A stretch of DNA of 64,000 bases from Anaerolineae bacterium (GTDB lineage Bacteria > Chloroflexota > Anaerolineae > CG2-30-64-16), in contig JAPKMS010000040.1 of the NCBI GenBank assembly GCA_026645775.1, positions 20,406 to 84,405 on the forward strand, read 5' to 3'. The notes under the pieces are model-generated. The model made no database searches and was not told the origin of the DNA. It saw only the letters and a list, made by a program, of their open reading frames with translations. Below are positions 12,579 to 62,253 of this stretch, one piece after another. The first letter of the stretch is position 1. Every line of letters starts with the position of its first letter. Made by a program: the position numbers and the translations under genes.

Positions 12579-12584
12579 GTTTTC

Positions 12585-12619: not shown

Positions 12620-12641
12620 ACAGAAGCCGGTAGGATGGAGC

Positions 12642-28166: not shown

Positions 28167-28179
28167 CGGCATCCGCTAC

Positions 28180-28210
28180 GCTGGGCGTACGACAAGGTCA
28201 TACGCCCAGC
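28180..28210. terminator. bidirectional hairpin between convergent genes
   Basis: gctgggcgta-cgacaaggtca-tacgcccagc, a perfect 10-bp stem. Confidence 0.5.
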
Positions 28211-28286
28211 GTCTACTTCTGCCTCATTCGTCCCACGGGACCTCACCGACGCCCTCCTTGAAGGCGGCCGTTTTGCCGGAGCGCCG

Positions 28287-35929: not shown

Positions 35930-36092
35930 TGAGCGGTCCGAAGACGATATCGAGTTGCTCGGGATCCCCGGTGAGATTCTCGTCGATGCGCTGGAACGGG
36001 CCGACACGGTGAGGACTATGCGGTGATGCAGCGCCCTAACCCCGTGACCCGTGGAGTGGCGACCTCAGGCGCTTGCGCAGGACGGCAAAAGC

Positions 36093-36725
36093 TCAGCGCC
36101 CCTGGAGTCGACGCCGAACGCGCTGCCTCGCGAACCAGCGCCGCACCGGCGGCAGGCGCAGAGCCAACAACGCGGCGATGAGCGCCCCCCAGGCCAGCGG
36201 CCCGCGGATATCCGCTTTCACTGCCCACGCGTAGTGGATGATCACCAGCCCGCCGGCCGCGTACACCCAGCGGTGCAGTTGCTTCCACCGCCGCCCCATC
36301 CGCTTCATCGCCGCCCCGGTCGATGTGAACGCCAGCGCCACCAGGATGGCCAGCGCGGCCGCGCCCACCAGGATGAAACGCTTGCCCGCCACGTCCAGCC
36401 AGATCAACCCCACATCGAAGCCGTAGTCCAGTCCGAGGAACGTCAGGAAATGCAGCGCGGCGTACACAAAAGCGTAGAGCCCCAGCGGCCGGCGCCAGCG
36501 CAAGACGGACCGCCAGCCGGTGACGGTATTCAGCGGCGTGCAGGCCAACGATGCCGCCATCAGGATCAGCGCGTATTTGCCGGTGCGCTGCTCGACTGCC
36601 TGGATCGGGTTGGCGCCCAGGTTGCCCCGCGCCGCGTCGAAGATCAGCCACGCCAGTGGGATCAGCGCGGCCAGATGCACCAGAAGCTGGTAGCGGGCGA
36701 ACTTGGGCAGGGATAATCGACGCAT
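36093..36725 (-). CDS. msrQ: methionine sulfoxide reductase heme-binding subunit MsrQ (YedZ)
   Basis: Colinear with E. coli YedZ (HLAALIPLAWL... HRWVYAAGGLVIIHYAWAV). Confidence 0.8.
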   Translation of the reverse strand: MRRLSLPKFARYQLLVHLAALIPLAWLIFDAARGNLGANPIQAVEQRTGKYALILMAASLACTPLNTVTGWRSVLRWRRPLGLYAFVYAALHFLTFLGLDYGFDVGLIWLDVAGKRFILVGAAALAILVALAFTSTGAAMKRMGRRWKQLHRWVYAAGGLVIIHYAWAVKADIRGPLAWGALIAALLALRLPPVRRWFARQRVRRRLQGR

Positions 36726-36777
36726 CGAGAGTGCCTTGTAGGAATCGGAGCGGGTGGACTGGAGGCCGGGTGCATTA

Positions 36778-36848
36778 GTAGATTGGTAGAAGGTAGATTG
36801 GTCTTTGCCGTAACTAACTTACCAACCTACCTCTCTACCAATTTACCA
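36778..36848. repeat. GGTAGATTGG-type inverted-repeat element in the msrP-msrQ intergenic region
   Basis: attggtagaaggtagattgg ... ccaacctacctctctaccaat. Confidence 0.45.
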
Positions 36849-36849
36849 C

Positions 36850-37812
36850 TCAATAAAACTTCGCCAGATCCATCCCCGCGTACAGCCCTGCCACCTGTTC
36901 GGCGTAGCCGTTGAATGGCAGCGTGCGGCGCCGGGCGGTCTCACCGATGCGGCGCTCGCTGGCCTGCGACCAGCGAGGATGGTTCACGTCCGGGTTGACG
37001 TTCGCATAGAAGCCATACTCATCGGGCGCGGCGACCATCCACAGCGAGGACGGCTGTTCGGCGACCAGGTCGATCTTGACGATCGATTTGATGCTTTTGA
37101 AGCCATACTTCCAAGGCACGACCAGCCGGAGCGGCGCCCCATTCTGGGGCAGGGCCGGTTTGCCGTAGACGCCGGTTGCAAGCAGCGTCAGGTCGTGCAG
37201 CGCCTCGTCCAGCCGCAGCCCCTCGACGTAGGGCCACTCGTACCAGTCGTTCCGCTGCCCCGGCATTTGTTCGGGGTCGTTGAGGGTCTCGAAGCGCACG
37301 TATTTCGCAGCGCCGGTCGGCTCCACCGCGGCGAGCAGCTTGTTGAGCTGGAAGCCCTGCCACGGGATCACCATCGACCACGCCTCCACGCAGCGCAGCC
37401 GGTAGATGCGCTCCTCTGGCGGGAACAGGCGGATCAGATCCTCCACGCCGAAGGTCGCCGGTTTATTCACCAGCCCGCCCACCTGGACGGTCCACGGCGC
37501 GGTGCGGAAGTTCTTGGCCTGCCGGGCCGGATCGCTCTTGTCGGTGCCGAACTCGTAGTAGTTGTTGTAGGTGGTGACGTCTTCATACGTTGTCAGGCGG
37601 TCGCCGAGCTCATCGGTTGATTTGCCGGCCGTGGGCGCGAGGGTTGCGACGCTGCCGACTGCCGGTGCTGGGCTGCTCGGCGCCGCGCACGCGGCCAATG
37701 CAGCCGCCGCGGCCAGCCCCCCCAATCCCAGCATGAACTGGCGCCGGTTGATGTAGACGTGCTCCGGCGTGATCTCTGACGACGGAATTCCGGGGATATC
37801 GGTCTTTGCCAT
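36850..37812 (-). CDS. msrP: methionine sulfoxide reductase molybdopterin subunit MsrP (YedY)
   Basis: Tat signal [15 protein letters not shown] and sulfite-oxidase-family core ([21 protein letters not shown]). Confidence 0.85.
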
Positions 37813-37964
37813 TGACCCTCCAGGCTCGCAAACGCGTGCTCCTCGTGTTTGCGTGGGTGATAGTTTATGCCCGGTCTTTGATAACCGGAATATGAAGATA
37901 CTATGCGAGGGTCGTTGCGTCTGTAAGCTGCTAGGCCTTGTGCAATACTGCGGTTATCCAAAAG

Positions 37965-38200
37965 CCAGTTCTCGACGCGCAATTGCGGCACGCGGGCGAA
38001 CTTATCCACGTTAGCGGTGACCAGGGTGACATCCAGACTGGCAGCGTGCGCGGCGATGAGGGTATCGAGCGGGCCGATGGGCGTGCCGCCTGTTTCCATG
38101 TGGGCGCGAATATGACCGTATGCTTTGGCCGCACCTTAGTCAAAGTCGGCGACCACAAGCGGCAGCAGACACAGCGCCAGGGCTTCGGCATTCTGTTCGG
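37965..38200 (-). pseudogene. vapC: vapC (PIN-domain toxin) remnant: N-terminus missing, frameshifted, no cognate antitoxin
   Basis: One frame gives ...EALALCLLPLVVADFD-stop. The adjacent frame gives AAKAYGHIRAHMETGGTPIGPLDTLIAAHAASLDVTLVTANVDKFARVPQLRVENWL, the canonical VapC C-terminal half. Confidence 0.55.
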
Positions 38201-38219
38201 GGTGGTTACTTATGCAATC

Positions 38220-38243
38220 CCCGGCAACTTCAAGTTGCCGGGG
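38220..38243 (-). terminator. hairpin just downstream of clpB stop
   Basis: cccggcaacttcaagttgccggg palindrome. No clear U-tract. Confidence 0.35.
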
Positions 38244-38255
38244 ATTGGACATGCC

Positions 38256-40859
<2,604 letters not shown>

Positions 40860-40878
40860 GGTGCCCTCCGCGTTCCGG

Positions 40879-40969
40879 GAATTGGTAGATTGGTAGACTG
40901 GTAGATTGGGAAAAGCCTCGCGACAATCGGCATACCAGTTCCCCAAGTTACCGATTTACCAGTCTACCT
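40879..40969. repeat. GGTAGATTGG-type inverted-repeat element in the clpB 5' leader
   Basis: aattggtagattggtagactggtagattggg -N37- ttaccgatttaccagtctacc. Confidence 0.45.
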
Positions 40970-41052
40970 GCTCCCCGTTAGCGTCGCATTCGCGGGGTGT
41001 TAGCGAAGTGTGAGAGACGAAAAATCGGCTTTAAAAAACGCGCATTTGCCTC

Positions 41053-41081
41053 TTGACAACCCGATTGTGTTGTGTTATCCT
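41053..41081 (+). promoter_or_regulatory. sigma70-like promoter TTGACA-N17-TATCCT for the GntR(FCD) regulator
   Basis: Sequence match only. Confidence 0.4.
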
Positions 41082-41141
41082 ATCATCACATATCAGACAT
41101 CCGACATCTAATCTCTTTGCGTTGATACTTGAGAGTGCGTT

Positions 41142-41867
41142 ATGGAAAAGCTGTCTCGCGGCCCGGTGCTCAACCGGGTTATCCAGGATCAGATCAAGCG
41201 GTACATCACCGAGAACCGGCTGGGCGCGGGCGATCTGCTGCCGCCGGAAGGCCAGCTTGCGGCCGATCTGGGGGTGAGCCGCGGCTCGGTGCGTGAGGCG
41301 GTCAAGTCGCTGGAGTCGCTGGGCATCGTTGAGGTGCGCCACGGCGACGGCGTGCGCGTGCGGGCTTTCAACTTCGACTCGGTGTTTGAGCTGCTATCGT
41401 ACGGTCTCGTGTTCGATCCCGTCCGGGCTGCTGAGGTCCTTGAGATTCGCGTGTGGCTGGAAGTGGCTGCGGTGGCCGATGCCGTGCGCCGGATCAGCGA
41501 CGCGGAACTTGCCGAGATGGATGCGCTGTTGGACCGCTGGGAGCAGAAGGCGGCCCTCGGTGGGGATGCCTCCGCGGATGATCGCGGCTTCCATCGGATG
41601 CTCTACAGCTCGTTGGGCAATGAGTCGTTGATGGGGTTGATCGATATTTTCTGGGTGATCTATCATTCGCTGCCCGTCCAAAGCATCGGCACGGATCGCC
41701 AGCCGCTGGCGACCGTCAGGGCGCACCGTGAGTTGTTGGCCGCGATTCGTGCGCGTGATGTGGTGCAGGCCACGCAGCACATGCGCGATCATTTCCACAA
41801 TTTGGAGGCCCGCATGGCCCGGGCCATCGAGATCAACCAGGCCGGCGCTGAGCCGGAACACAACTAA
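41142..41867 (+). CDS. GntR-family regulator, FadR/FCD subfamily (NanR-like?)
   Basis: wHTH (LPPEGQLAADLGVSRGSVREAVKSL) plus a C-terminal FCD domain. Confidence 0.8.
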   Translation: MEKLSRGPVLNRVIQDQIKRYITENRLGAGDLLPPEGQLAADLGVSRGSVREAVKSLESLGIVEVRHGDGVRVRAFNFDSVFELLSYGLVFDPVRAAEVLEIRVWLEVAAVADAVRRISDAELAEMDALLDRWEQKAALGGDASADDRGFHRMLYSSLGNESLMGLIDIFWVIYHSLPVQSIGTDRQPLATVRAHRELLAAIRARDVVQATQHMRDHFHNLEARMARAIEINQAGAEPEHN

Positions 41868-41885
41868 CCAGGGGAGAGCCACGGT

Positions 41886-42890
41886 ATGGCGCATCTGTTG
41901 GAAGTCAAAGACCTGGTGACGCGGTTCTACTCGGACCGCACGACCATCCATGCGGTCAACGGCATCTCCTACACGCTGGACGAGGGCGAATCGCTGGCGA
42001 TTGTCGGCGAGAGCGGCTCGGGCAAGTCGGTGGGAGTAATGTCGCTGATGGGGCTCATCCGCTATCCGCCGGGCCGGGTGGAGGGGGGCGAGGCGCTCTT
42101 TAAGGGCCGCGATCTGCTCAAGCTCTCGCCCAGCGAGATCCGCAAGGTGTGCGGGCGCGAGATCGCGATGGTCTTCCAGGACCCGATGACCTCGCTGAAT
42201 CCCGTCCTGCCCATTGGGCTGCAACTGGGCGAATCGCTGCGCAAGCATATGGGGATGGATAAGGCGCAGGCCCAGGTGCGCGCGGCAGAGCTGCTCGCCC
42301 TGGTCGGCCTGCCCAACGCGGCGGATCGCCTGAAGGATTTCCCGTTCCAGTTCTCCGGCGGGCAGCGGCAGCGCATCATGATCGCGATGGGGTTGGCGTG
42401 TGATCCCAGCCTGCTGATTGCGGACGAGCCGACCACCGCGCTGGACGTCACGATCCAGGCGCAGATTGTCGAGCTGGTGAAAGAGCTCCAGCAGAAGCTC
42501 GGCATGGCGATTATCTGGATCAGCCACAACCTGGCGCTGGTAGCGGGCATGGTGGACAAGGTCATCGTCATGTATTCCGGCTACATTGTGGAGCAGGCGC
42601 CAGTGGATGACCTGTACGAGCGGCCGCTGCACCCCTACACGCTGGGCCTGCTGCACGCCATCCCCACGCTGGAGCAGCGTAACCAGGAGCGGCTGGCCTC
42701 CATTGAGGGGATGCCGCCCGATCTGCGCAAGCCGGTGACGGGCTGCCCCTTCGCTCCGCGCTGCCCGTATGCGATCGAGAAGTGCCTGCAAGCCATCCCG
42801 CCCCTGCAAGCCGTGGGCCCTCAGCGCACCTCCGCCTGCTGGCGCGCCGAAGAGCTGCGCGGGGTTCACACCTTTGGAGACAAGCTATGA
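41886..42890 (+). CDS. ABC ATP-binding protein (DppD/OppD-like)
   Basis: Walker A GESGSGKS, signature and C-terminal oligopeptide-ABC extension with Cys cluster. Confidence 0.85.
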
Positions 42891-43897
42891 CCGCCCCAAT
42901 GCCCTCAAAGACACTCGTCGAGGTCAAAAACCTCAAGGTGCATTTCCCGATCCGTCGCGGATTGCTGCGCAAGCAGGTCGGCGCGGTGCGCGCGGTGGAT
43001 GACATCAGCTTCGATGTGTACGAGGGCGAGACGCTGGGCCTCGTGGGCGAGAGCGGCTGTGGCAAGTCCACGACCGGGCTGGCCGTGCTGAAGCTGCTGG
43101 AAGCGACCGCGGGCGAGGTCCGTTTCCGCGGGCAGGACCTGACGCACCTCAGCGAGGCGCAGATGCGCCCCTTGCGCCGGCACATGATGATGGTGTTCCA
43201 GGACCCGTACTCGTCGCTTAACCCGCGCATGACCGTGGGCAACATCATCGGTGAACCGCTGGGTGTGCATGCGGTGGGCGCGGCAGCCGAGCGGGCGGAG
43301 CGCGTGCAGGAGCTGCTGCGGCTGGTGGGGTTGAACCCCGCGTTCATCAACCGCTATCCGCACGAGTTCTCCGGCGGGCAGCGCCAGCGCATCGGTCTGG
43401 CCCGCGCGCTGGCGACCAACCCGGCGTTCATCGTGGCCGACGAGCCGATCTCCGCGCTCGATGTGTCCATCCAGGCGCAGGTCGTCAACCTGATGAGCGA
43501 TCTCAAGTCGCAGCTTGGGCTGACGTACCTGTTTATCTCCCACGATCTTTCCATGGTGCGTTTCATCAGCGACCGCGTCGCTGTGATGTACCTGGGCAAG
43601 ATGGTGGAGTTGGGCAGCCGCGATGCCGTGTTCGAGCGGCCGCTGCACCCCTATACGCGGGCGCTCATGTCGGCTGTGCCCGTTGCGAACCCTCGCCTGG
43701 AGCGCCAACGGCGGCGCATCATCCTCGAGGGGGATGTGCCGAGTCCCGCGAAGCCGCCCGCGGGCTGTCGTTTCCATCCGCGCTGTGCATTTGCCACCGA
43801 TATCTGCCGTCAGGAGGAGCCCGCCCTGCGGGAGCTGGAAGGCGGGGCTGTGGCTTCGCACCGGGTGGCGTGCCATCACGCGGAGAAACTGCTCTGA
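42887..43897 (+). CDS. ABC ATP-binding protein (DppF/OppF-like)
   Basis: GESGCGKST and LSGGQRQR. ATG overlaps the upstream stop. Confidence 0.85.
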
Positions 43898-43958
43898 TTG
43901 CATTCAACGAGCTGGTCCGTCAGTGGGCCGGCGTAACCATCACTCCAAGGAGAGAACC

Positions 43959-45665
43959 ATGAAGGTCACCCAGTTGTTCGTTATCGTTGCCCTGTTCGCG
44001 ATGGTGCTGTCTGGCTGTGCCGCCCCGGCCGCCACAACGACACCCGCGACCCCCGCCCCGGCCGCCGTCGAACCGACGAAGGCCCCTGAAGCACCCGCGG
44101 CGCCCGCCGTGGAACCGACCGCTGCCCCCGCCGCTGCCACAGGGCCTGCTGGCGTCTTCCGCTCGCCCATGCGCACCGGCTGCGCGGTTGGCACGCTGTG
44201 GACCACCTGCGGCCGCCGCCTCGATGAGGCGTTCCTCCAGGGCCTGGCGGAAGTCAAGTGGACCGCCGACGGCGTCGAGCCGCTGCTGGCCACCAACTGG
44301 GACGTAGAAGATGGCGGCAAGGCGTTCGTCTTCCATCTGCGCGAAGGCGTCAAGTGGCATGATGGCGAGCCCTTCACGGCCGATGATGTCGTCTTTACCT
44401 TCAACATCTTTGCGAACCCGGCGGTTGGCTCCACTTACGCGGCTAAACTGTCGGATGTCGTCGGCTACGATGAGTTCAAGGCCGGCACCGCGACTTCGCT
44501 GGCCGGCGTGACCAAGGTCGACGACATGACGGTGCGCGTCGAACTCAAGGCCGTGACCCCGCTGTGGGTCGAGCTGCAGCAAATCTCGATCAGCATCCTG
44601 CCCGAACATATCCTTGGCAGCGTCGCGCCGGATCAACTGCGCACGCACGCCTACTGGAAGAACATGGTCGGCACCGGCCCGTTTGTTATGACCAAGTTCG
44701 TGGATGACCAGTACATCGAAGGCGCCGCCAATCCCGACTACTTCCTGGGCAAACCCAAGCTGGACAAGATCGTCTTCCAGATCTACGCCGACACCACCGC
44801 GATCCTGAACGCGCTCGAGGCCGGTGAGCTCGACGCCACCCCGTACGAGGGCGGCGGCATCCCGCTCGATCAGGTCAAGCGCTTCGAGGCGATGGACCAC
44901 CTGACCGTCCTGGGCAACATGGACGGCGGCCTGCCCACGTTCCTGTTCGTCAACTTCACCGACCCGGACTTCGCCAAGCTTGAGGTCCGCCAGGCCATGA
45001 TGTATGCGATCGACCGCCAGACCATCATGGAAACCGTCCGCATGAACTACGGCAAGATCTCCAACACCATGTTCCCTGCGGAATGGGCCCGCCCCGCGGA
45101 CCTGGAAACGTACGCGTACAATCCTGAGAAGGCCATGGAACTGCTCAAGACGGCCGGCTGGGACAGCACGCGCAAGCTCGACTTCCTTTACTACTACAAC
45201 GACCAGGTCAACAAAGACATCGTCGTGGCGATCCAGTCGTACCTGGCGGCGGTCGGCGTCAACGTCGAGCCGCGGCTGGTGGACGGCGCGGGCTTCAACC
45301 AGGCGATCGTCGACGGCACCTTCCAGGTCGGCTACGGGGCCAACGGCCAGGGCCTTGACCCCTCCATCGCGGCCAACATCCAGAAGTGCGGCACGCAGCG
45401 TGCGATGGGCTACTGCAACGAGCGGGTGGACGAGCTGTTCGGCTTGGGCCTGAGCGAAGGCACCCGTGAGAAGCGCGCCCCGTACTACCAGGAAATCAGC
45501 ACGATCCTGAACAAGGAACTGCCGAAGATCTGGCTGTGGTACGAGGTCCGGCCGATGGGCTTCAACAGCCGCATCGCTGGCCTGGCCGAGCATTTCGCGC
45601 AGCAGCCGCTGCTGATGTTCGACATCCCGGTCTACAACGAAATCCACACCTGGTACACCAAGTAA
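43959..45665 (+). CDS. ABC substrate-binding lipoprotein, family 5 (peptide/nickel/oligosaccharide type; SatA-like?)
   Basis: Lipobox LSGC, Ala/Pro-rich linker and family-5 SBP core. ATG at 43959 behind AAGGAGAG. Confidence 0.85.
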   Translation: MKVTQLFVIVALFAMVLSGCAAPAATTTPATPAPAAVEPTKAPEAPAAPAVEPTAAPAAATGPAGVFRSPMRTGCAVGTLWTTCGRRLDEAFLQGLAEVKWTADGVEPLLATNWDVEDGGKAFVFHLREGVKWHDGEPFTADDVVFTFNIFANPAVGSTYAAKLSDVVGYDEFKAGTATSLAGVTKVDDMTVRVELKAVTPLWVELQQISISILPEHILGSVAPDQLRTHAYWKNMVGTGPFVMTKFVDDQYIEGAANPDYFLGKPKLDKIVFQIYADTTAILNALEAGELDATPYEGGGIPLDQVKRFEAMDHLTVLGNMDGGLPTFLFVNFTDPDFAKLEVRQAMMYAIDRQTIMETVRMNYGKISNTMFPAEWARPADLETYAYNPEKAMELLKTAGWDSTRKLDFLYYYNDQVNKDIVVAIQSYLAAVGVNVEPRLVDGAGFNQAIVDGTFQVGYGANGQGLDPSIAANIQKCGTQRAMGYCNERVDELFGLGLSEGTREKRAPYYQEISTILNKELPKIWLWYEVRPMGFNSRIAGLAEHFAQQPLLMFDIPVYNEIHTWYTK

Positions 45666-45675
45666 GTGACTGACA

Positions 45676-45706
45676 GGTGTAGGGGCGGGGTCACCCCGCC
45701 CCTACA
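45676..45706 (+). terminator. perfect 15-bp hairpin after the SBP gene
   Basis: gtgtaggggcggggt-c-accccgcccctacac. Confidence 0.5.
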
Positions 45707-45736
45707 CAAACCCTATGCGACACGGAGTTCATCGCT

Positions 45737-46693
45737 ATGACCACGTATATCTTACGCCGCATCCTCATCAGCCTGCCCATCATCCTGGGGATCACGATCA
45801 TCGTGTTCCTGCTGGCGAACATGATGCCGGGCGACGCCGTGTTGGCGATGATCTCCTCGGATACGCCCATGGAAGCCGACCTGATCAAGCTGCGCCAGGG
45901 CCAGTTGGGCCTCGATCTGCCCCTGTACGTGCAGTATGGCCGTTGGCTGGGCAACCTGGTGCATGGCAACCTCGGTTTCTCCTTCCAGACCGGCGAACCG
46001 GTGGCGCGGATGATTGTCACGCGCATCCCGGCCACGCTGGAGCTGATGGGCATTTCGCTGCTCATTTCCATCATTTTAGGCGTCATCCTGGGGACGGTGT
46101 CGGCGCTGAAACAATATTCTGCGCTGGATTACGGCCTGACGCTGTTCGGCTTTACCGGCATCTCCATCCCCGATTTCTTCCTGGGCATGATCCTGATCTT
46201 CATCTTTGCCTTGAAGCTCAAATGGTTCCCGACCTCCGGCATGGTGACCGCGGGCACCGACTTTTCGTGGGGTGATAACCTGCGCCACTTGTTCCTGCCC
46301 GGGCTGGCGCTGGCCCTGGTGCGCACGTCCGTGTTTATGCGGTATACCCGCGCCAGCGTGCTCGAAGTCATCAACGACGATTACGTGCGCACGGCCCGCG
46401 CCAAGGGGATGACCGAATTTGTCGTCATCGCCCGGCACGTCCTGCGCAACGCCCTGATCCCCGTCATCACGGTGATCGGCGTCAGCCTGACGGTGTTGTT
46501 TGCCGGGGCCGTGATCATCGAGACCATCTTCCAGTGGCCGGGTATCGGGCTCATGTTCATCAGCGCGATCTCGCTGCGCGACTCGCCCGTCATCATGGGC
46601 TACGTGCTGGTATCCGCTTTTGTCGTGCTTATCGCCAACCTGTTGACCGACGTCGTGTATTCGTGGGTTGATCCCCGGATCCGGTACGAGTAG
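45737..46693 (+). CDS. ABC permease (DppB-like)
   Basis: Six TMs and an EAA loop. Confidence 0.85.
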   Translation: MTTYILRRILISLPIILGITIIVFLLANMMPGDAVLAMISSDTPMEADLIKLRQGQLGLDLPLYVQYGRWLGNLVHGNLGFSFQTGEPVARMIVTRIPATLELMGISLLISIILGVILGTVSALKQYSALDYGLTLFGFTGISIPDFFLGMILIFIFALKLKWFPTSGMVTAGTDFSWGDNLRHLFLPGLALALVRTSVFMRYTRASVLEVINDDYVRTARAKGMTEFVVIARHVLRNALIPVITVIGVSLTVLFAGAVIIETIFQWPGIGLMFISAISLRDSPVIMGYVLVSAFVVLIANLLTDVVYSWVDPRIRYE

Positions 46694-46702
46694 GAGATCC
46701 CA

Positions 46703-47596
46703 ATGACAACTGCCGCTGCGTCAACGATCGTGCTCGCCACGAGCAAGCCGGAGAGCCTGTGGACGAAGGCCCGCAGGCGCTTCTTCCGCCATAAGCTCGC
46801 CATGTTCGGGCTGGTCACCCTGTTCCTGCTGATCTTCGTTTCGGTGGCCGCGCCGCTGCTCACGCCGTATTCGCCCATTACGCTTGATCTGCGCGCGATG
46901 CGCAAGGCGCCGACCGCCCTGCACTGGCTGGGCACCGATGGCACCGGCCGCGACGTCCTGACGCGCATCTTCTATGCCGGCCGCATCTCGTTGTCCGTGG
47001 GCCTGGTGTCGGTTTCCATCTCCATGCTCATCGGCATCATCATCGGCAGCATCGCGGGCTACAAGGGCGGCAAGGTGGACATGTTCCTGATGCGCCTGAC
47101 CGACATGTTCATGACGTTCCCGTCGCTGGTTATCATCATTACCGTAGCGGCCGCGATGGGCCCCAGCGTCTATAACGCTATGCTCGTGATCGGCCTGCTG
47201 ACGTGGCCGTCCATCGCCCGGCTGGTGCGCGGCCAGTTCCTGACGTTGCGCGAACAGCAGTTCGTGCGCGCGGCTCGCTCCATCGGCGTATCCGATTGGG
47301 AGATCATCTTCAAACACATCTTCCCGAACACCATCAGCTCCATCGCGGTCGCGGTGACCTTCGGCGTGGCGAACGCCATCCTGTTAGAGGCGTCGCTGTC
47401 GTTCCTGGGGCTGGGGGTGCAGGCGCCGACGCCGAGCTGGGGCAACATGCTGCGCGACGCCCAGAGCCTCAACATCCTGGAAGACATGCCCTGGATGTGG
47501 CTGCCGCCCGGCCTGATGATCGGGCTGGCGGTGTTGAGCATCAACTTCATCGGCGACGGCCTGCGCGACGCGCTGGACCCGCGATCCATTTTGTAG
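46703..47596 (+). CDS. ABC permease (DppC-like)
   Basis: Six TMs and an EAA loop. Confidence 0.85.
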   Translation: MTTAAASTIVLATSKPESLWTKARRRFFRHKLAMFGLVTLFLLIFVSVAAPLLTPYSPITLDLRAMRKAPTALHWLGTDGTGRDVLTRIFYAGRISLSVGLVSVSISMLIGIIIGSIAGYKGGKVDMFLMRLTDMFMTFPSLVIIITVAAAMGPSVYNAMLVIGLLTWPSIARLVRGQFLTLREQQFVRAARSIGVSDWEIIFKHIFPNTISSIAVAVTFGVANAILLEASLSFLGLGVQAPTPSWGNMLRDAQSLNILEDMPWMWLPPGLMIGLAVLSINFIGDGLRDALDPRSIL

Positions 47597-47597
47597 A

Positions 47598-47670
47598 GAT
47601 AAGGCTAAGGATAAGGCTGAGAATTCATATGAACCTTCGACCTTAGCCTTGATCTCAACTTTAGCCTTAC
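47598..47670. repeat. AAGGCTNAGG tandem-repeat hairpin element after the permease gene
   Basis: gataaggctaaggataaggctgag ... accttagccttgatctcaactttagccttac. The right arm is homologous to the element at 50241-50292. Confidence 0.45.
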
Positions 47671-47681
47671 TGGAGACATTA

Positions 47682-48569
47682 ATGCGTACATTTGATGGTT
47701 TCTGGCCGGCGCTTATCACGCCGTATACTGAGAACGACGAAATCAACGTGAAAGTTTTGCGCGAATTGGTGGATTACCACCTCAGCAAGGGCGTCAGCGG
47801 CTTCTACCTGTGCGGCAGCACGGGCGAAGGCGCGTTCCAGACGGTGGCCGAGCGGAAGCTGGTGGTCGAGACCGCCCTGGCGCGCATCAACGGCCGCGTG
47901 CCGGTGATCGTGCACGTGGGCGCGGCGGTGTTGAACGACGCAGTCGAGCTGGCGCGGCATGCGCAGGCTCGCGGCGCGGCGGGCATCAGCAGCATCCTGC
48001 CGCCCGTGATTTACAACTTACAGGGCGTCGTGCCCTTCTTTGAGCGGATCGCGGCCGCGGCGCCGGAGCTGCCGTTCCTGCCCTACCTGTTCGGCTTCTC
48101 CCGCGATGCCGTGGCGCTGATGCGCGATCTGGCGCACATCCCCAACCTGGCCGGCACCAAGTACACCGGGCCGAACATGTACGAGATGAACCAGGTCATC
48201 CGTTTCCGTTCGGAAGGCTGGACCGTCTTTTCGGGGATGGACGAGCAGGCGGCTTTGGGGCTGATGTACGGCGCGGCCGGCGTGATCGGCTCGACCCTGA
48301 ATTTTATGCCCGGCGTCTACCGGGAGATCTACGCCAGCGTTCGGGGCGGCGACCCCGCGCGGGCGCTTGAATTCCAACGCCGCGGCAACCGCATCACCGA
48401 ACTGATGATCAGCAACGGCTTCGTCGGCTCGTTTCGCGAGGGGATGCGGCTGCTGGGCTTCGACTGCGGCCAGCCCCGCCTGCCCAATCTGCCGCTGCCC
48501 GAAGCGAAGCGCGCCGCGCTGCACGCTGGGTTCGAGGAATTTGGGTTCGCGGAACTGGCCGCGCTGTAA
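47682..48569 (+). CDS. DapA-family aldolase/lyase (N-acetylneuraminate lyase-like)
   Basis: DHDPS/NAL fold motifs (GFYLCGSTGEG, lysine-bearing strand). ATG at 47682 behind GGAGAC. Confidence 0.8.
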   Translation: MRTFDGFWPALITPYTENDEINVKVLRELVDYHLSKGVSGFYLCGSTGEGAFQTVAERKLVVETALARINGRVPVIVHVGAAVLNDAVELARHAQARGAAGISSILPPVIYNLQGVVPFFERIAAAAPELPFLPYLFGFSRDAVALMRDLAHIPNLAGTKYTGPNMYEMNQVIRFRSEGWTVFSGMDEQAALGLMYGAAGVIGSTLNFMPGVYREIYASVRGGDPARALEFQRRGNRITELMISNGFVGSFREGMRLLGFDCGQPRLPNLPLPEAKRAALHAGFEEFGFAELAAL

Positions 48570-48683
48570 CCCGAAAAATCGGACGCGGACGAGCGCGGAT
48601 CAACGCGGATGGCTGAATTGTCAGTCCATGCCTGTTGCCCCGCAGGTCCGCTGGTCCAGATCTCAACTTTCGTGAGCAAGAGA

Positions 48684-49892
48684 ATGACCGCTACTGATAC
48701 TTCAACGATCATGTCCCCCGCCCGCGTTGAGGCGCTGCTGGCAACTTATCGGGATGGCCTGCTCAACAGCACGCTGCCGTTCTGGTTCCCGCGCGCGGTT
48801 GACGAGGAGCACGGCGGATTTATGTTCTCGCGCGACCGTGACGGGTCGCCCTTGGACAGCGACAAAGCGATCTGGCTGCAAGGACGGGCTTCCTGGCTGC
48901 TGGCGACGCTCTACAGCGAGGTGGCGCCGCGGCCGGAATGGCTGGCGTGGTCGCGGCACGGCATCGATTTCCTGCGCAAGCACGGCTTCGACGCGGATGG
49001 CCGGATGTTCTTCCTGGTGGATCGGGAGGGTCGCCCCCTGCGCAAGCGGCGCTACATCTTCAGCGAGACGTTCATGATCGCCGCGCTGGCCGCGTACGGC
49101 CGTGCCGCCGGGGACGCGGCCGCGGTGCAGGAAGCGCTTGAGTTATATCAGCGCGTGCAGAGTCATCTTGACACACCCGGCGTGTTGGAGCCGAAGTGGA
49201 ACACCGCCGTGCGGCCCATGCGCGGGCTGGCCGTGCCGATGATCATGATCGTCACCGCGCAAATCCTGCGGCAGGCATTGCCCGACCCCACCTTCTGCAA
49301 TCAGACGATTGACCGCTACATCGGCGAGCTCCGCCGCTACCACATGCACCCGGAGCTGGCGACCGTGCTGGAGACCGTCGGGCCGGACGGCGAATTCCTG
49401 GATCACTTCGACGGCCGCACGCTGAACCCCGGGCATGCCATCGAGGCATCGTGGTTCATCATGCACGAAGGACGGCTGCGCGGCGACCCTGAGCTGATCC
49501 GGACCGGCCTGACGATCCTTGACTGGATGTGGGAGCGGGGCTGGGATCGGGAGTACGGTGGCATCACCTACTTCGTGGACGTCAAGGGGCTGCCGGTGCA
49601 GGAGTACTGGCACGACATGAAGTTCTGGTGGCCCCAGAACGAGACGATCATCGCCACGCTGCTGGCTTACCGGCTCACCGGGGATGAGAAGTACGCGCGC
49701 TGGCACCGCATGATCCACGACTGGACCTACGCGCGCTTCCCCGACCCGGAGCACGGCGAATGGTTCGGCTATCTGCACCGCGACGGCCGGCTCTCCTCGC
49801 GCCTCAAGGGCAACACGTACAAGGGCGCGTTCCACGTCCCGCGCATGGAGCTGATCTGCTGGAAGCTGATGGAGGAGATCAAGGCCGGGTAA
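48684..49892 (+). CDS. AGE-family epimerase/isomerase (N-acylglucosamine 2-epimerase-like)
   Basis: (alpha/alpha)6-barrel AGE signatures. ATG at 48684. Confidence 0.8.
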   Translation: MTATDTSTIMSPARVEALLATYRDGLLNSTLPFWFPRAVDEEHGGFMFSRDRDGSPLDSDKAIWLQGRASWLLATLYSEVAPRPEWLAWSRHGIDFLRKHGFDADGRMFFLVDREGRPLRKRRYIFSETFMIAALAAYGRAAGDAAAVQEALELYQRVQSHLDTPGVLEPKWNTAVRPMRGLAVPMIMIVTAQILRQALPDPTFCNQTIDRYIGELRRYHMHPELATVLETVGPDGEFLDHFDGRTLNPGHAIEASWFIMHEGRLRGDPELIRTGLTILDWMWERGWDREYGGITYFVDVKGLPVQEYWHDMKFWWPQNETIIATLLAYRLTGDEKYARWHRMIHDWTYARFPDPEHGEWFGYLHRDGRLSSRLKGNTYKGAFHVPRMELICWKLMEEIKAG

Positions 49893-49924
49893 AGGCGGCC
49901 GCAAACTTCTGGCTGCATAAATCA

Positions 49925-49960
49925 CAGGCGTCAAACGCTTTGGGTAGCGTTTGACGCCTG
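49925..49960. terminator. perfect 14-bp bidirectional hairpin
   Basis: caggcgtcaaacgc-tttgggta-gcgtttgacgcctg. Confidence 0.55.
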
Positions 49961-49979
49961 TTCGCGCCGAGGACTCGCA

Positions 49980-50228
49980 TCACAGCGCTGCCGCGTGCCA
50001 TAAGCCCTTCTCCGTCAACACATACGTCGCGGCCGGAAACTTCATATTGCTGGCGATCAGCCCGTGCCGCTTGAGGGTCTCGACCACGGCGCGCTCCACG
50101 GCCTCGTCCGGCCCGTCGAGCGGGTGCAGGGTGTAGGTCTTTTCGCCGTCCAACGTCCGGTGGGCCTTGAGGGTCGCGCCGGCGAGCATGGTGCGCAAAA
50201 TGCGAGTAGATTCGGAGGAAAGCCTCAT
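49980..50228 (-). CDS. small (82 aa) protein, possibly winged-helix
   Basis: Last gene of the radical SAM operon. Carries a Y.LTEKG wing-like motif. Preceded by a GAGG-rich repeat. Confidence 0.4.
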   Translation of the reverse strand: MRLSSESTRILRTMLAGATLKAHRTLDGEKTYTLHPLDGPDEAVERAVVETLKRHGLIASNMKFPAATYVLTEKGLWHAAAL

Positions 50229-50240
50229 GAGCTGGGACTG

Positions 50241-50292
50241 CTCAACCTCGACCTTGGCCTTAACCTCAGCCTTAACCTCAGCCTCAACCTAA
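50241..50292. repeat. tandem AACCTCAGCCTT repeat (about 3.5 units; purine-rich AAGGCTGAGGTT on the minus strand)
   Basis: ctcaacctcgaccttggccttaacctcagccttaacctcagcctcaacct. Confidence 0.5.
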
Positions 50293-50490
50293 CTCCCTGA
50301 CGTACTGCTGCAACTGCCGCTGGTTGATCTTCTGAAACTGATCCGGGATGATCTCCGCCATCTCGGCCTCGCTCAGCCGGATGCGCAGGACTTCCAGCGC
50401 GTCCTCAGGCGATTGGCCGTAGGCCAGTTTCTTTTTGCCGCTCGTCATGGCGAACAAATACATGTAGTGGGGGTTGCTGAAGCTGCTCAT
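50284..50490 (-). CDS. small (68 aa) hypothetical protein, translationally coupled to the radical SAM gene
   Basis: The ATG overlaps the radical SAM stop (ATGA). No family recognised. Confidence 0.4.
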   Translation of the reverse strand: MSSFSNPHYMYLFAMTSGKKKLAYGQSPEDALEVLRIRLSEAEMAEIIPDQFQKINQRQLQQYVRELG

Positions 50491-51905
50491 GCCTTCACCA
50501 GCGCCTGTGCGTACAATCCCTGATACCCGCGCGCTTGCTCTTCCGGGCTCAGCCCCTGGTTGATTTCGGCGTCGTACTTGCCGGCCAGCAGCTCGCGGTA
50601 GAACTGGTAGTCCACGCCCCGCACCTTCTCGTCACCGGGGAAGCGATGGTAGTTTTCCTTCGACATCAGGCTCTTGCCCTCGGCGATGAGCTGGAAACCC
50701 AGGGCCGAGCCGGGATAGGGCGCGTAGTAGGAGATCGACGGGAAGACGCGCTTCATCCGCTTGAGCATGCGCATCGTCTTGAACGCGTCCTCGTGCGACT
50801 CGCCCGGGATGCCCAGCATGATGTTGGACCAGAAGCGCGGGGGCTGTTTGCCTTCGCGCGCCATGTCATCGCCGATGCGGTTCAGCAGATCGATGGCGAA
50901 GTTGTTGTCCTCTTCGGTGCATTCCTTGTTCAGGAGCTTGAGGGTGCGGTCGCTGCCCGACTCGAAGCCGATGGAGATCAGGTTCCAGTTGGTCTCCCGC
51001 ACCAGCGCCTCGAAGAGATCGGGCCATTGGCGCACAGTGTCGGCCCGGCCGGCCGCCCAATACGTCCAGCGCTTGTGCGCCTTGCGCGGATACTTGTCGA
51101 TCCACTCCCGCAGCCAGCTCGGATTCTGGAAGAACATCGAGTCATGGATCACGAACGAGCCGACCCCGTACTTGTCATCCAGGTAGTTGAGCTCGTCTAT
51201 CACCGCATCGACCGGTTTGCGGCCCATGTTGGGGACGTAGGAGCTCTCGTTGCAGAACACGCACTGCCATGGGCATACGCGGCTGGTGAGCAAGGTGACG
51301 ACCGGGCCAGGCCCCCAGCCGCACTCCGGCTCCAGCGGCCAGTTAAAGCGGCGGCTGATGCGGCGGCTGGCCGGTTTGGGCCACAGCGTACGGTCGATCA
51401 TGGGCCACTCGGCCATCGACGCGGCGCTCTCGCCGATCACCAGGCGCGGAAACGCGGCGTGATCGTGCACCAGATCCACGATGACCTTCTCGCCCGGCCC
51501 CTGGCAGACGTGGTCGAACTCGGCGATTTCCAGCATTTCGTCCGGCGCAACGGTGGCGTGCATGCCGCCGGCCATCACGATCCCGTGTGGGTTCACCTCT
51601 TTGAAAACCTGCGCGGCCTTGCGGCCCGAGGGGAAGGTGTAGCTTCGCACGTTCATCAGCGCCATCTCGTAGCCGGCAATCTGCCGCTTGAGTTGGTCCC
51701 ACGAAGTGACGGCGCGGGTCGAGACAACATCGGTCAGGGTTCCGTTTTGATGGAGGATGGTGCGGAGGAGCCCCAAGCCATGGTCCTGCCACTGTTCGTG
51801 CGGCCCGTCCGGGTTTACCAGATCGCCCAGGTCACCCAGGTCGATCCAGACGATTTTCGGTTTTTCCTGTTTCCACGGCCAAGCTATACGCATCTTGTAC
51901 ATCAC
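50487..51905 (-). CDS. B12-binding-domain radical SAM protein (class B)
   Basis: CPWQCVFC (CxxxCxxC) cluster and N-terminal Rossmann-like B12-binding-type domain. Confidence 0.8.
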   Translation of the reverse strand: MMYKMRIAWPWKQEKPKIVWIDLGDLGDLVNPDGPHEQWQDHGLGLLRTILHQNGTLTDVVSTRAVTSWDQLKRQIAGYEMALMNVRSYTFPSGRKAAQVFKEVNPHGIVMAGGMHATVAPDEMLEIAEFDHVCQGPGEKVIVDLVHDHAAFPRLVIGESAASMAEWPMIDRTLWPKPASRRISRRFNWPLEPECGWGPGPVVTLLTSRVCPWQCVFCNESSYVPNMGRKPVDAVIDELNYLDDKYGVGSFVIHDSMFFQNPSWLREWIDKYPRKAHKRWTYWAAGRADTVRQWPDLFEALVRETNWNLISIGFESGSDRTLKLLNKECTEEDNNFAIDLLNRIGDDMAREGKQPPRFWSNIMLGIPGESHEDAFKTMRMLKRMKRVFPSISYYAPYPGSALGFQLIAEGKSLMSKENYHRFPGDEKVRGVDYQFYRELLAGKYDAEINQGLSPEEQARGYQGLYAQALVKA

Positions 51906-52029
51906 CTGTAGAGAATTAGGAAGCTATTCTAACCGATTTTGGGGAGATAAGCCAATTTGCCTGCCGCTGAGCTTGCGCGGTTTGACCTTCTGGATTGCTT
52001 CAACTATACTCGCAGCCAGGAGATCTAAG

Positions 52030-52356
52030 ATGGAAACAATCCAGGTAGAAGTATCGTCGGAACTGGCCCAACGGCTGCGGACCTATCCAGATAAGCTCAC
52101 ACAGATCTTAGAAAGGGGACTGCACATCATCGAAGCCGAAGAAAGGCCTGCTGCGACGAGTATTTCCTCTGCACGCCAAAAGACACTTGACGCCTTGCGC
52201 GCCTCCGGGCTGATGCTGGAACTCGATCCCACTCTGGTCAAGCGTTACCGGGCGGGGATAGACAAACCGCGCTGCACGCCCGTCTATGTGAAGGGCAAGC
52301 CCTTAAGCGAGATAATCATAGCAGAGCGCGGGCCGGCATGGGATGACCAGGCATGA
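52030..52356 (+). CDS. antitoxin of VapBC-type pair
   Basis: 109-aa ORF behind CAGGAGATC. It ends in an ATGA overlap with the PIN-domain gene. Confidence 0.55.
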   Translation: METIQVEVSSELAQRLRTYPDKLTQILERGLHIIEAEERPAATSISSARQKTLDALRASGLMLELDPTLVKRYRAGIDKPRCTPVYVKGKPLSEIIIAERGPAWDDQA

Positions 52357-52814
52357 CCACCTACTATCTTGATAGCAGCGCTCTGGTCAAACGTTACGCG
52401 GTAGAGATCGGCACGGCATGGGTGCGGATGCTCTGCGAACAAGCCGATAACGTGATTGCAGTAGCCTTGTTTGGGTTAGCAGAGGTAGCAGCCGCAGTCA
52501 ATGGCAAACTCCGTGGCAAAGCAATTGATTCGGCCACCAGCGACGCAATTCTGAACGACCTTAAGGCTGATGCAGTAGCGCAGTATTCATTGCTGGATGT
52601 TGACCAATTTGTGGTTGATGAGGCAATGGATTTGACCAGCCGACATCGCCTGCGCGGCTATGACGCAATCCATCTTGCCAGCGCCTTGCGTCTCAATCGC
52701 GCGTTGACCGAACTTCAGTTACCCCCGCTCATCCTGGTTTCTGCTGATGGCGATCTTTTGAAGGCGGCGCAGGGTGAGCATCTTGCAATCGAGAACCCCA
52801 ACGAGCATCCCTGA
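52353..52814 (+). CDS. vapC: PIN-domain toxin VapC
   Basis: YYLDSSALVK N-terminal acidic motif and conserved PIN Asp residues. Confidence 0.8.
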   Translation: MTTYYLDSSALVKRYAVEIGTAWVRMLCEQADNVIAVALFGLAEVAAAVNGKLRGKAIDSATSDAILNDLKADAVAQYSLLDVDQFVVDEAMDLTSRHRLRGYDAIHLASALRLNRALTELQLPPLILVSADGDLLKAAQGEHLAIENPNEHP

Positions 52815-52816
52815 CG

Positions 52817-53803
52817 ATGGGTCGAGGCGCGTACGAGCAAAACTATACCCAGCTCAATCTCCCCGAGCTGGCGATCGACGCTGTAGACGCGACGCCAACC
52901 GCGGTCGCGCTGTCTTCTGATTTGACCGGCCCTGGCCCGGCAGCGGTCGATCTGTACTGCGCCGACAACCTGGCGCTGCTCGACGCATTGAGCGGGCCGT
53001 GGGCCGGCACGTTCCAGTTGATCTACCTCGATCCGCCGTTCGGCAGCGGCAAGGTCTACAGCGCCCGCGTCGACGGCGCGCCGGGCCGGGGTGCGCAGCC
53101 GGTGGATGCCTACCGGGACACCCAAGATTTCGATGCCTATCTCGCCTGGCTGGACCGGCGGCTGGCGTTTTGCCGCGACCTGCTGGCGGCCAGCGGCACG
53201 CTGTACGTCCACCTCGACTGGCATGCGGTGCACTATGTCAAAGTGTCGCTGGACCGCCTCTTCGGCCGCGAGCGCTTCCTCAACGAGATCATCTGGTGCT
53301 ACCACGGGCCATCGCCCATCCGTAGCGCGTTCAAGCGCAAACACGACACGATCCTGGTCTACACCCGCTCGGCCGATTATTTCTTCGATGCGGACGCCGT
53401 GCGGGTGCCTTATGATCCAGCGACGGTGAAGACGTTTGCCAGCAGCCCCAAAGCCGGGTTCGGCAAGGCGCCCGATCTAGCGCGCGGCAAGGTGCCGGAG
53501 GACTGGTGGTATTTTCCGGTGGTAGCGCGGATGCACTCCGAGCGCACCGGCTACGAGACACAGAAGCCCGAGGCGCTGCTGGCGCGGATCATCAAGGCGT
53601 CCAGCCGGCCGGGCGATCGGGTAGGCGACTTCTTTGCCGGCGCCGGCACGACCGGCGTGGTCGCCGCGCGGCTGGGGCGTGGTGCGGTGCTGGTTGATCG
53701 GAACCCGGTAGCGGTGGAGAAGAGCCTGCTGCGCCTGGCGCGGCTCGAACCCCGGCCGCAGGTCAGCCTCTGGCGTTATTTTGCCCATCAGGCCCAGGAG
53801 TGA
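52817..53803 (+). CDS. beta-class N4/N6 DNA methyltransferase (orphan)
   Basis: Motif IV DPPF (LIYLDPPFGSG) lies upstream of motif I (FFAGAGTTGVVAARLGRG). No restriction-endonuclease partner is visible. Confidence 0.8.
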   Translation: MGRGAYEQNYTQLNLPELAIDAVDATPTAVALSSDLTGPGPAAVDLYCADNLALLDALSGPWAGTFQLIYLDPPFGSGKVYSARVDGAPGRGAQPVDAYRDTQDFDAYLAWLDRRLAFCRDLLAASGTLYVHLDWHAVHYVKVSLDRLFGRERFLNEIIWCYHGPSPIRSAFKRKHDTILVYTRSADYFFDADAVRVPYDPATVKTFASSPKAGFGKAPDLARGKVPEDWWYFPVVARMHSERTGYETQKPEALLARIIKASSRPGDRVGDFFAGAGTTGVVAARLGRGAVLVDRNPVAVEKSLLRLARLEPRPQVSLWRYFAHQAQE

Positions 53804-61416: not shown

Positions 61417-62253
61417 TCAGCCGGGCAGCCGTTCCAGCACCAGGAAATGGCTCAGCCCGAATGCCTGCAAGGGCGTGTGTTCCAGGGTGTACAGCACGCG
61501 GCGCAGGATGCGCCCCAGGCCGGGGCGCCGCGCGACCACGTTATCGAAGCCGGGGTAGACGATGCTGTGATGGACCACCCGCACCGGCTGCCCGGCAAAC
61601 AGGCCAAGCAGCCCGGCGCTCGTGTAGGCGCGCACGTGCGGCGCCAAGCGGTTGCGCAGCGGATTTGGCAGCCAGTTGATCAGCGGCGTATTGCCGAAGT
61701 GATACTGCCCGCGCCAGTAGTGGCCGTGGGTCTCAAAGGGATACAGCCGATTGGGGCAGAAAAGCGTGAGCCGGCCGCCGGGCGCCAGCACGCGCACCAT
61801 CTCCGCGGCCGCAGTGCGGTCGTCGGAGACGTGCTCGATGACTTCGTGAGAGAACACGACGTCAAAGCTGCCGTCCGCGAGCGGAAGCGCTTCGGCCGGC
61901 GCCAGCACGATGCCCGGGATGCGCGCGGCGGCCTGCGCCGCGACCGCCGGGTCCACCTCAACGCCGACCACGTGCGGGCTGAACCGGCGAAACTGCTCGG
62001 TGTACATGCCCACGCCACAGCCGGCGTCCAGGATGCGCGCGTCCTCCAGCTTTGCCCATTGACGCACCAGCCCCAGCCGGCGCTCTTGTCCGGCCCGCCA
62101 GACGTAAGAAGGATGGCCGAGCCGGGCCGCGTCGTCTGCCGTCCGGCGGTAAACATCGTTAGATGATGTGTCCAACTGTCTTAATCCTGTGGAAGTTTTG
62201 AGCCTACGCCTGGCCTGCAGCGATCCGGCGCGCGAGCTCCGCCTCGATGGCAT
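61417..62253 (-). CDS. class I SAM-dependent methyltransferase (type 11)
   Basis: ILDAGCGVGMY motif I. The start is uncertain: the ATG at 62253 overlaps the upstream gene by 50 nt. Confidence 0.7.
   Translation of the reverse strand: MPSRRSSRAGSLQARRRLKTSTGLRQLDTSSNDVYRRTADDAARLGHPSYVWRAGQERRLGLVRQWAKLEDARILDAGCGVGMYTEQFRRFSPHVVGVEVDPAVAAQAAARIPGIVLAPAEALPLADGSFDVVFSHEVIEHVSDDRTAAAEMVRVLAPGGRLTLFCPNRLYPFETHGHYWRGQYHFGNTPLINWLPNPLRNRLAPHVRAYTSAGLLGLFAGQPVRVVHHSIVYPGFDNVVARRPGLGRILRRVLYTLEHTPLQAFGLSHFLVLERLPG

Follow-up and report, generated by a model that had tools for sequence, protein, structure and literature searches.

The window analysed here is a 64,000-nucleotide stretch of DNA from an Anaerolineae bacterium of the phylum Chloroflexota (contig JAPKMS010000040.1, positions 20,406 to 84,405; base composition 62-71% G+C), and the nearest named relatives of its RecN and ClpB proteins come from metagenome-assembled 'Anaerolineae bacterium' genomes and other Chloroflexota genomes. 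The spacer between an oppC-like permease gene and a dihydrodipicolinate synthase (DHDPS)/NanA-like gene in this window is filled by a palindrome composed of short tandem repeats (the 47598 element), one of seven loci that a preliminary description had grouped as a single family of purine-rich repeat hairpins. All seven sequences are present, each contains short tandem units, and the elements form AT-rich islands within the GC-rich genome. In the 47598 element a purine arm (47597-47622) of AAGGCTRAGGAT-type units faces a pyrimidine arm (47634-47657), CCTTCGACCTTAGCCTTGATCT, which is followed by an extra CTTTAGCCTTA unit. The predicted RNA fold of this element has an energy of -26.6 kcal/mol, and its array at 47598-47616 was recovered by Tandem Repeats Finder, the program used for array detection throughout the window. 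As had been proposed, one of the loci lies in frame within recN, one in the clpB leader and four between co-directional genes; these four begin 0-7 nt past the upstream stop codon or overlap it.

The long hairpin that had been taken as the usual outcome of this architecture is found at five of the loci. When each locus was compared with 200 dinucleotide shuffles, the fold z scores were -3.5 (12585), -6.6 (19589), -5.8 (36778; -5.8/-5.9 for the element from 36777), -4.8 (40879) and -3.9 (47598), whereas the arrays at 8486-8573 (z +0.7) and 50241-50292 (z +1.4) fold no better than their shuffles and are arrays without a hairpin. Purine-rich units, which had been ascribed to all loci, do not describe 12585, which is a repeated GC-rich palindromic 18-mer and another type of element. 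The unit motifs exceed expectation in 100 shuffles per motif: AAGGCYRAGG has seven matches against 0.5 expected, four of them inside the 47598 and 50241 elements; GGTAGAYTGGTA, allowing up to two mismatches, has 11 against 2.3; and AAGGTTGAAGG, allowing up to one mismatch, has three against 0.5. None of the 100 shuffles reaches the observed count for any of the three. Thus, the flagged loci are not low-complexity coincidences lacking motif enrichment. They are a genuine class of repeat element with several unit families in the window, plus one element of a different type (12585), in place of the one homologous family of seven that had been envisaged. The narrower claim that the 47641 arm and the 50241 array are homologous stands in the sense of a shared unit family, as marked by the AAGGCYRAGG matches.

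The same class was surveyed in related Chloroflexota in a pool of the window and 113 further loci (1.5 Mb in total), drawn from recN loci of GTDB genomes, DHDPS loci of metagenomes, and the first recN and clpB loci of relatives; individual loci are cited below by L numbers. With a cut-off of at least 2.5 copies, 139 period-7 arrays were found against 10 in a dinucleotide shuffle, and period 7 is the commonest of all periods, exceeding the codon-compatible periods 6 and 9. Period-8 arrays are also in excess (43 against 14). Among the 56 pairs of adjacent arrays, defined as lying within 80 nt of each other, 27 are inverted-complementary and none is direct. Polarity could be scored in the 29 pairs whose arrays differ in purine content by at least 0.2, and all 29 run from a purine-rich to a pyrimidine-rich array (29:0, p = 4e-9); these polar pairs comprise 16 complementary and 13 non-complementary ones. 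Elements range in length from about 50 to over 220 nt, and 123 of 189 lie outside a crude map of open reading frames (ORFs), in about 10% of the DNA. They begin a median of 18 nt after the upstream stop codon, with a quarter overlapping it, and their intergenic contexts are co-directional in 80 cases, convergent in 18 and divergent in 14. The carriers are metagenome-assembled genomes labelled Anaerolineae, Anaerolineales, Caldilineales/Caldilineaceae, Thermoflexales and Chloroflexia.

Table 1. Tandem-repeat elements of the window (window coordinates) and of the recN loops of related genomes.
Feature	Position	Strand	Units and context
In-frame recN insert	8486-8573	+	recN 6951-8819; encodes ...GQESGVRRQESGDRSQETGTRFQLLASS...
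Different-type element, 18-nt palindromic unit	12584-12630		CAGAAACCGGGTTTCTCC x2.6; between pepF-like and hydrolase genes
Short single pyrimidine-type array	13883-13903		GATCTACCT x2.3; related to the GGTAGAT unit family; overlooked in the preliminary description
Heptamer palindrome	19589-19655		GGTTGAA x4.7 (19590-19622), loop, TTCAACC x4.0 (19626-19654)
Palindrome, GGTAGATT unit family	36777-36848		msrP-msrQ-like spacer in a minus-strand operon; starts 2 nt past the msrP-like stop
Palindrome, GGTAGAYTGG unit family	40879-40969		clpB 5' leader (clpB 38256-40859, minus strand)
Tandem-repeat palindrome	47597-47670		spacer between oppC-like permease gene (stop 47594-47596) and DHDPS/NanA-like gene (start 47682)
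Single array, no complementary arm	50241-50292	-	between a 68-aa ORF (50284-50490) and an 82-aa ORF (49980-50228)
recN loop of L002 (91% RecN identity)			GCGGAGGA x4, then CCTTCAA x4
recN loop of L003			GGGG(T/G)CA, then CCAGCCA
recN loop of L012			GGGGAGAT, then CCAACCT
recN loop of L009			complementary GACGAAC/GTCGTTG hairpin

The elements of the window (Table 1) have a period of 7 at 8486 and 19589, of 8 at 40879, where the GGTAGATT unit family is shared with 36778, and of 6/12 at 47598 and 50241. The 19589 palindrome (-34.7 kcal/mol) has arms unequal by one 7-nt unit and covers the stop codon (19600-19602) of an M20 peptidase gene, with the next gene starting 14 nt beyond its end. Tandem Repeats Finder also recovered the array at 36820-36851, a ATTGGTAG array of 3.6 copies at 40881-40909 and a 12-mer of 2.8 copies at 50257-50290. 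Read on the minus (sense) strand, 50241-50292 consists of RAGGYN hexamers in 12-nt units and belongs to the unit family of the 47598 element. The 12585 element contains a perfect 15-bp hairpin, and no copy of its palindromic unit was found among 118 loci searched. An intrastrand triplex motif (PMC4666352) was considered for the 47598 element and rejected on inspection, the extra unit (47659-47670) being a direct and not a mirror copy of the pyrimidine arm. A side observation concerns the size that arrays may attain: the contig of L072 begins (1-290) with about 35 consecutive TACCAA(C/T)C octamers of the unit family found at 36778 and 40879, and arrays can therefore reach several hundred bases.

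Unit sequences are genome-specific, dispersed families. Same-locus arrays more than 400 nt from each other have an identical heptamer in common in 8.7% of cases, as against 0.47% between loci (odds ratio 20, p = 4e-16), and sharing between loci still lies above the letter-shuffled expectation (28 versus 12.9 +/- 3.0). The GGTAGAYTGGTA family occurs in the window at 36778 and 40879, with the related fragment GATCTACCT at 13883, and elsewhere in L010, L072, L117 and three sites of L118. In similar fashion, the CCTTCAA unit of the 19631-19655 arm is that of the pyrimidine array in the recN insert of L002, and L080 carries two near-identical elements, loop included. Within pairs, the order of unit variants in one arm mirrors that in the other better than permuted orders do in 21 of 25 informative cases, with individual significance in only three, which is consistent with inverted copying of whole arms.

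A comparison of related genomes, recommended in the preliminary description, revealed differences of presence and absence at orthologous sites, and these sites show gain, loss, persistence and, in the recN loop and clpB leader, replacement of one unit family by another. The oppC-DHDPS spacer occupied by the 47598 element is just 12-17 nt long in L087, L089 and L090 and holds a different, perfect 16-bp hairpin in L085. The spacer orthologous to 50241 contains a CACGAAG/CTTCGTG palindrome in L116 and is free of arrays in L118, and the 12585 element is missing from the same junction in L002. In both the window and L116 a stop and a start codon overlap as ATGA, and exactly at this point L118 has an 88-nt element. 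The msrP-msrQ element has an orthologue in L117, built from the same unit family in another copy number.

The clpB leader offers the fullest series. A palindrome of the GGTAGAT family is present in the window, L116 and L118, one of the CTGGAAG family in L117 and L122, and a remnant in L120, while L119 and L121 lack the element; in all eight genomes the site is downstream of one conserved block. In the window the element lies between this block (40973-41016) and the ribosome-binding site. The block itself, about 44 nt with the sequence CTCTCACACTTCGCTAAC...GCTAAC in minus-strand sense, is found upstream of clpB in eight genomes including L116-L122, has three C(T/C)AAC boxes 11 nt apart in most of them, and is probably a promoter or operator of clpB. 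A further side observation is that the clpB gene call of L122 (883 aa) begins inside the leader palindrome (1501-1530), because the pyrimidine arm has no stop codons.

The recN insert of the window consists of a CAGGAGT/CAGGGGT purine array of 8.6 copies (8486-8546) followed by a GCTTCCA pyrimidine array of 3.3 copies (8551-8573). A hairpin reading was rejected here because the two arrays are not complementary, and the insert has no fold. The loop between KLWxL(T/S) and HQVLCITH is hypervariable across 120 RecN homologues, with an aligned segment of 38-87 residues, and repeat-like peptides are encoded in it in many of the homologues. The loop has 2 aa in distant Chloroflexota and 20-43 aa in the close clade, where the units differ from genome to genome; the DNA order is again a purine-rich array first and a pyrimidine-rich array second. 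In L027 a different recN loop holds a further heptamer palindrome, again in frame. The notion that native GTCAGGA and GCCACCA sequences seeded the recN arrays in situ suits the window and L003; it fails for L002, whose units match a family present elsewhere, and was kept as a partial mechanism only. A special hotspot upstream of recN was considered and dropped, as a rough estimate places its array frequency near the general intergenic density. In another clade, L049 and L073 (11492-11590 in both) carry in the same loop a 33-residue insert that includes a non-tandem hairpin, GCCGCAGCATCACGGAG...CTCCGTGAGGCTGCGGC; hairpin DNA of differing kinds is therefore tolerated in the recN loop.

The explanation favoured here, and judged moderately probable, is that the 47598 element and most of the listed loci are DNA-level tandem-repeat palindromes of the heptamer simple sequence repeat (SSR) kind, grown by slippage and arm-to-arm template switching and dispersed by copying. 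In this explanation each element is a pair of short arrays facing each other, with units of 6-8 nt or sometimes 12-16 nt, and the strand rich in purines always points 5' to 3' toward the centre; such palindromes are a common and quickly turning-over part of Anaerolineae/Caldilineae-type Chloroflexota genomes. Replication slippage would lengthen and shorten the arrays, and intrastrand template switching (fold-back) would copy or correct one arm from the other, thereby creating and keeping the palindrome. Unit families may reach new sites in a genome by a copy mechanism such as gene conversion, short-seed insertion or trans-mobilisation. Selection would merely filter the tolerated sites, namely spacers, leaders and surface loops in which the stop codon or frame is restored. 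Transcribed elements would yield long intercistronic stem-loops, whose effects on mRNA processing, stability and read-through would be incidental and not what maintains them. In-frame survival in the recN loops of several genomes supports this explanation, and the elements show each of the traits of heptamer long SSRs or arrays like the short tandemly repeated repetitive (STRR) sequences: head-to-tail units, a period-7 excess, intergenic and stop-proximal location, and convergent pairing. Replication template switching generates a perfect inverted repeat in a single step and also homogenises or lengthens its arms; it has been described for hairpins of the rRNA and miRNA type and for yeast promoters (Monttinen and Loytynoja 2022, PMC8794818; PMC13100816). 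It fits the mirrored unit order while leaving the tandem arms, the genome-specific families and the polarity unexplained.

Several points weigh against this explanation. Slippage and fold-back alone do not predict an absolute polarity, which the 13 non-complementary pairs also obey, and the favoured mechanism explains neither this strictness nor why unit families are swapped. It does not specify how elements spread between sites, and the inserted element of L118 lacks a seed nearby. Elements persist at the clpB leader and the msrPQ spacer across several genomes, which could mean function. Single arrays tend mildly to have their purines on the sense strand (25:11, p = 0.03), and ordinary non-tandem intergenic hairpins, with perfect stems of at least 10 bp, place the purine arm first in 63 cases against 23, while hairpins in coding regions have no arm-order bias (17:14). 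Purine-first hairpins and sense-purine single arrays hint at some transcript-level constraint. In addition, the sample consists of loci of at most about 22 kb (at most 10 kb on either side of a marker gene) as opposed to whole genomes, and the statistics on location depend on an ORF map that is crude and covers 90% of the DNA.

The alternative that survives best, though it is unlikely, is that the elements are non-autonomous mobile elements of the REPIN or miniature inverted-repeat transposable element (MITE) type, in which hairpin DNA would be moved in trans by a RAYT or an IS200/IS605-type tyrosine transposase and the arms later varied by slippage. The preliminary likening of the loci to repetitive extragenic palindromic (REP) sequences and MITEs is apt for their genomic behaviour, because unit families recur at several loci and genomes and relatives have empty sites. 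Genome-specific unit families at dispersed sites, the clean L118 insertion at a stop/start overlap that is uninterrupted in relatives, and the L080 copies sharing both arms and loop would all be expected of mobile DNA. The GGTAGAT family moreover includes GTAG, the REP tag, and REPs are known in DNA-repair genes, with GTAG REPs reported in Chloroflexi (PMC3733652). The likeness does not, however, extend to the definitions of these elements. REPs have a constant stem-loop of 20-40 nt, a GTAG/CGTC tag and an associated RAYT gene (Di Nocera et al. 2013, PMC3733652), whereas here copies lack a constant length or sequence, unit number and unit family differ between copies, and many unit families coexist. 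GTAG occurs only within units of the GGTAGAT family and not as a tag at the palindrome end, and the other families, among them AAGGCT, GGTTGAA and CAGGAGT, are devoid of it. The uniform length of MITEs is missing, no inverted repeats other than the arrays themselves mark the termini, and a comparison of filled with empty sites gave at most a possible 2-nt AT as target-site duplication (L118). Non-complementary pairs and single arrays are common, and no transposase family was matched among about 20 window proteins scanned, a subset of the window genes.

Less probable still is that the elements are RNA structures under selection, acting as terminators or attenuators without a U-tract, RNase barriers, processing sites within operons, or controls in the clpB leader. 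Their stable folds and their sites right after stop codons and within operons suit such roles, as does the clpB-leader architecture, kept in five genomes despite the change of unit family, together with the persistence at the msrPQ spacer. The purine-first bias of ordinary intergenic hairpins, which coding ones do not share, also belongs here, as does the enrichment of transcript starts and stops at such repeats in Xanthomonas (PMC4692102). Folding of the RNA nevertheless gives the sense strand no advantage: it has the better fold in 11 elements, as against 16 for the antisense strand, and there is therefore no sign of strand-specific RNA refinement. A terminator consensus scan of 36000-51000 reported no site on an element and no T-run follows the elements, so that they do not qualify as intrinsic (Rho-independent) terminators, and their stems are AT-rich relative to the 65% GC genome. 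No Rfam 15 family matched anywhere in the window at gathering thresholds. An RNA thermometer of the ROSE or fourU type is not indicated in the clpB leader, since the 40879 stem stops upstream of the GGAGGG ribosome-binding site, which the predicted fold leaves unpaired, and L119 and L121 have no element in this leader. In many cases the orthologous spacer is empty, all intergenic types are occupied in ordinary proportions, and the recN arrays do not pair.

A directional process is a decidedly doubtful candidate, in which genome-specific, purine-rich 7-8-nt units would be written under the guidance of a template onto the two 3' ends that flank a DNA break or a stalled fork, and the ends then joined. 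The agent may be a repeat-adding polymerase, a reverse-transcriptase-like activity, or obligatory slippage of a purine-rich nascent strand. If true, such writing would account for the inward orientation of the purine strand, even in non-complementary pairs, and also for the small set of units proper to each genome, the swapping of units at kept sites and the presence of the same rule in Xanthomonas.

Very improbable, in turn, is the preliminary suggestion of Shine-Dalgarno (SD) mimicry, by which the purine arms would be anti-SD decoys or ribosome standby and pause sites masked by the pyrimidine arms. GGAG, GAGG or AAGG does occur in some units (47598, 50241, 8486), GGAG is somewhat high in the purine arms (55 against 36 expected from composition), and single arrays have the sense-strand purine excess given above. 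However, a core SD 4-mer is present in only 24 of 58 purine-rich arms, where GAGG, AGGA and AAGG are at or below the expectation from composition; many families (ATGAGTA, CAGTCAA, GGTAGAT, GGACGAA) have no SD-like sequence; and the purine arm lies beside the stop codon of the preceding gene instead of the start codon of the next. An origin as chance low-complexity sequence or as an artefact of assembly, conceivable in metagenome assemblies that break at repeats (the Logan contig L001 breaks off inside the 12585 repeat), can practically be dismissed given the strong excess over shuffles, the identity of a separately deposited Logan contig (run SRR14932514) to part of the window, the orthologous elements in separate assemblies from other samples, and the maintained frame in recN.

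Returning to the tandem-repeat palindromes of the favoured explanation, their closest known relatives are the convergent GGGAATC heptamer arrays of Xanthomonas and the cyanobacterial STRRs, which they closely resemble. According to Rehm et al. (2015, PMC4692102), a Xanthomonas genome holds about 185 such arrays, of which about 90% are intergenic and 7-11% overlap ORFs; 70-75 convergent pairs per genome form inverted repeats. The arrays lie near or overlap the upstream stop codon, are not conserved between Xcc and Xac, and have transcripts beginning or ending at them more often than expected. The same paper describes GGGGA(C/T)T arrays as the Nostoc counterpart and cites Mrazek et al. 2007 for over-represented heptameric long SSRs. 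The Chloroflexota elements share with the Xanthomonas and Nostoc arrays the 7-nt units in variable copy number, the intergenic bias, the proximity to stop codons, the convergent pairs and the lack of conservation among close relatives. They differ in that each genome holds several unit families and not one dominant G-run unit, that most units cannot form G-quadruplexes, and that units of 8, 12 and 16 nt are also present. The in-frame occupation of the recN loop and the swapping of unit families at a fixed site are documented here, in a different host phylum.

Other repeat systems are more remote. Cyanobacterial STRRs and the TAACTGA repeats of Beggiatoaceae and cyanobacteria (PMC4679880) are likewise intergenic tandem heptamers of patchy distribution and several unit types. 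The TAACTGA arrays, however, are nearly all direct (one inverted case in 170), oriented to the downstream start and built of one fixed unit (PMC4679880), unlike the Chloroflexota elements, which are typically paired palindromes with many different units. REPs, BIMEs and REPINs (PMC3733652) are also short palindromic intergenic repeats, mostly downstream of genes and often inverted dimers that form long hairpins, and REPs share the species-specific families and the occasional in-frame copies at a common site inside DNA-repair genes. Unlike REPs, the arms described here are variable numbers of short units and have no constant sequence. Rickettsia palindromic elements are reportedly selfish sequences of 100-150 bp, conserved in sequence and inserted in frame in protein genes. 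They would thus be similar in that conserved proteins tolerate a palindromic repeat, read in frame, within their surface loops, and dissimilar in that the recN inserts consist of arrayed 7-8-nt units, which vary among genomes at 91% RecN identity. The preliminary view that the repeats belong to no described family therefore needs qualification: the architecture is known from Xanthomonas, with relatives among the cyanobacterial STRRs, while a literature search for these repeats in Chloroflexi and Anaerolineae found no description.

Heptamer-type tandem repeats have been known for their odd abundance in some bacteria since 1990 (STRRs) and 2007 (long SSRs). The Anaerolineae-type Chloroflexota are a third, unrelated lineage in which repeats of this kind are common. 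Any mechanism must obey the rules found here, namely the 29:0 polarity, genome-specific families, clean insertions at stop/start sites, replacement of units and in-frame colonisation of recN. The elements also have practical consequences, as they break short-read contigs and lead gene callers astray (the call of one clpB gene extends into an element, and the recN loop is lengthened by up to about 40 residues), and they place stems of 20-70 bp inside operons of abundant wastewater and sediment bacteria.

Several neighbouring features of the window were also observed. An operon at 41142-49892 encodes a GntR/FCD regulator, a peptide-type ABC transporter, a NanA-like lyase of the DHDPS family and an N-acetylglucosamine (GlcNAc) 2-epimerase. 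It parts clpB from a radical-SAM/small-ORF cluster that directly precedes clpB in L116, L118 and L122; its approximately 8.9 kb are therefore an insertion or rearrangement specific to this lineage. Perfect or near-perfect non-tandem hairpins of 15-22 bp occur at 18293-18336, 28178-28212, 38215-38247, 45677-45707 and 49924-49961; on inspection these five lie at gene ends with no T-run after them, and they may be the ordinary U-tract-less terminators of this genome. A small ORF and a PIN-domain protein, resembling a toxin-antitoxin pair, are followed by an N6/N4 DNA methylase (51757-53803). Finally, a 252-nt unit occurs twice with 87% identity at 62498-63002, inside a minus-strand ORF (62204-63532) with CarboxypepD_reg/SdrD_B-like matches, and looks like a recent domain duplication.

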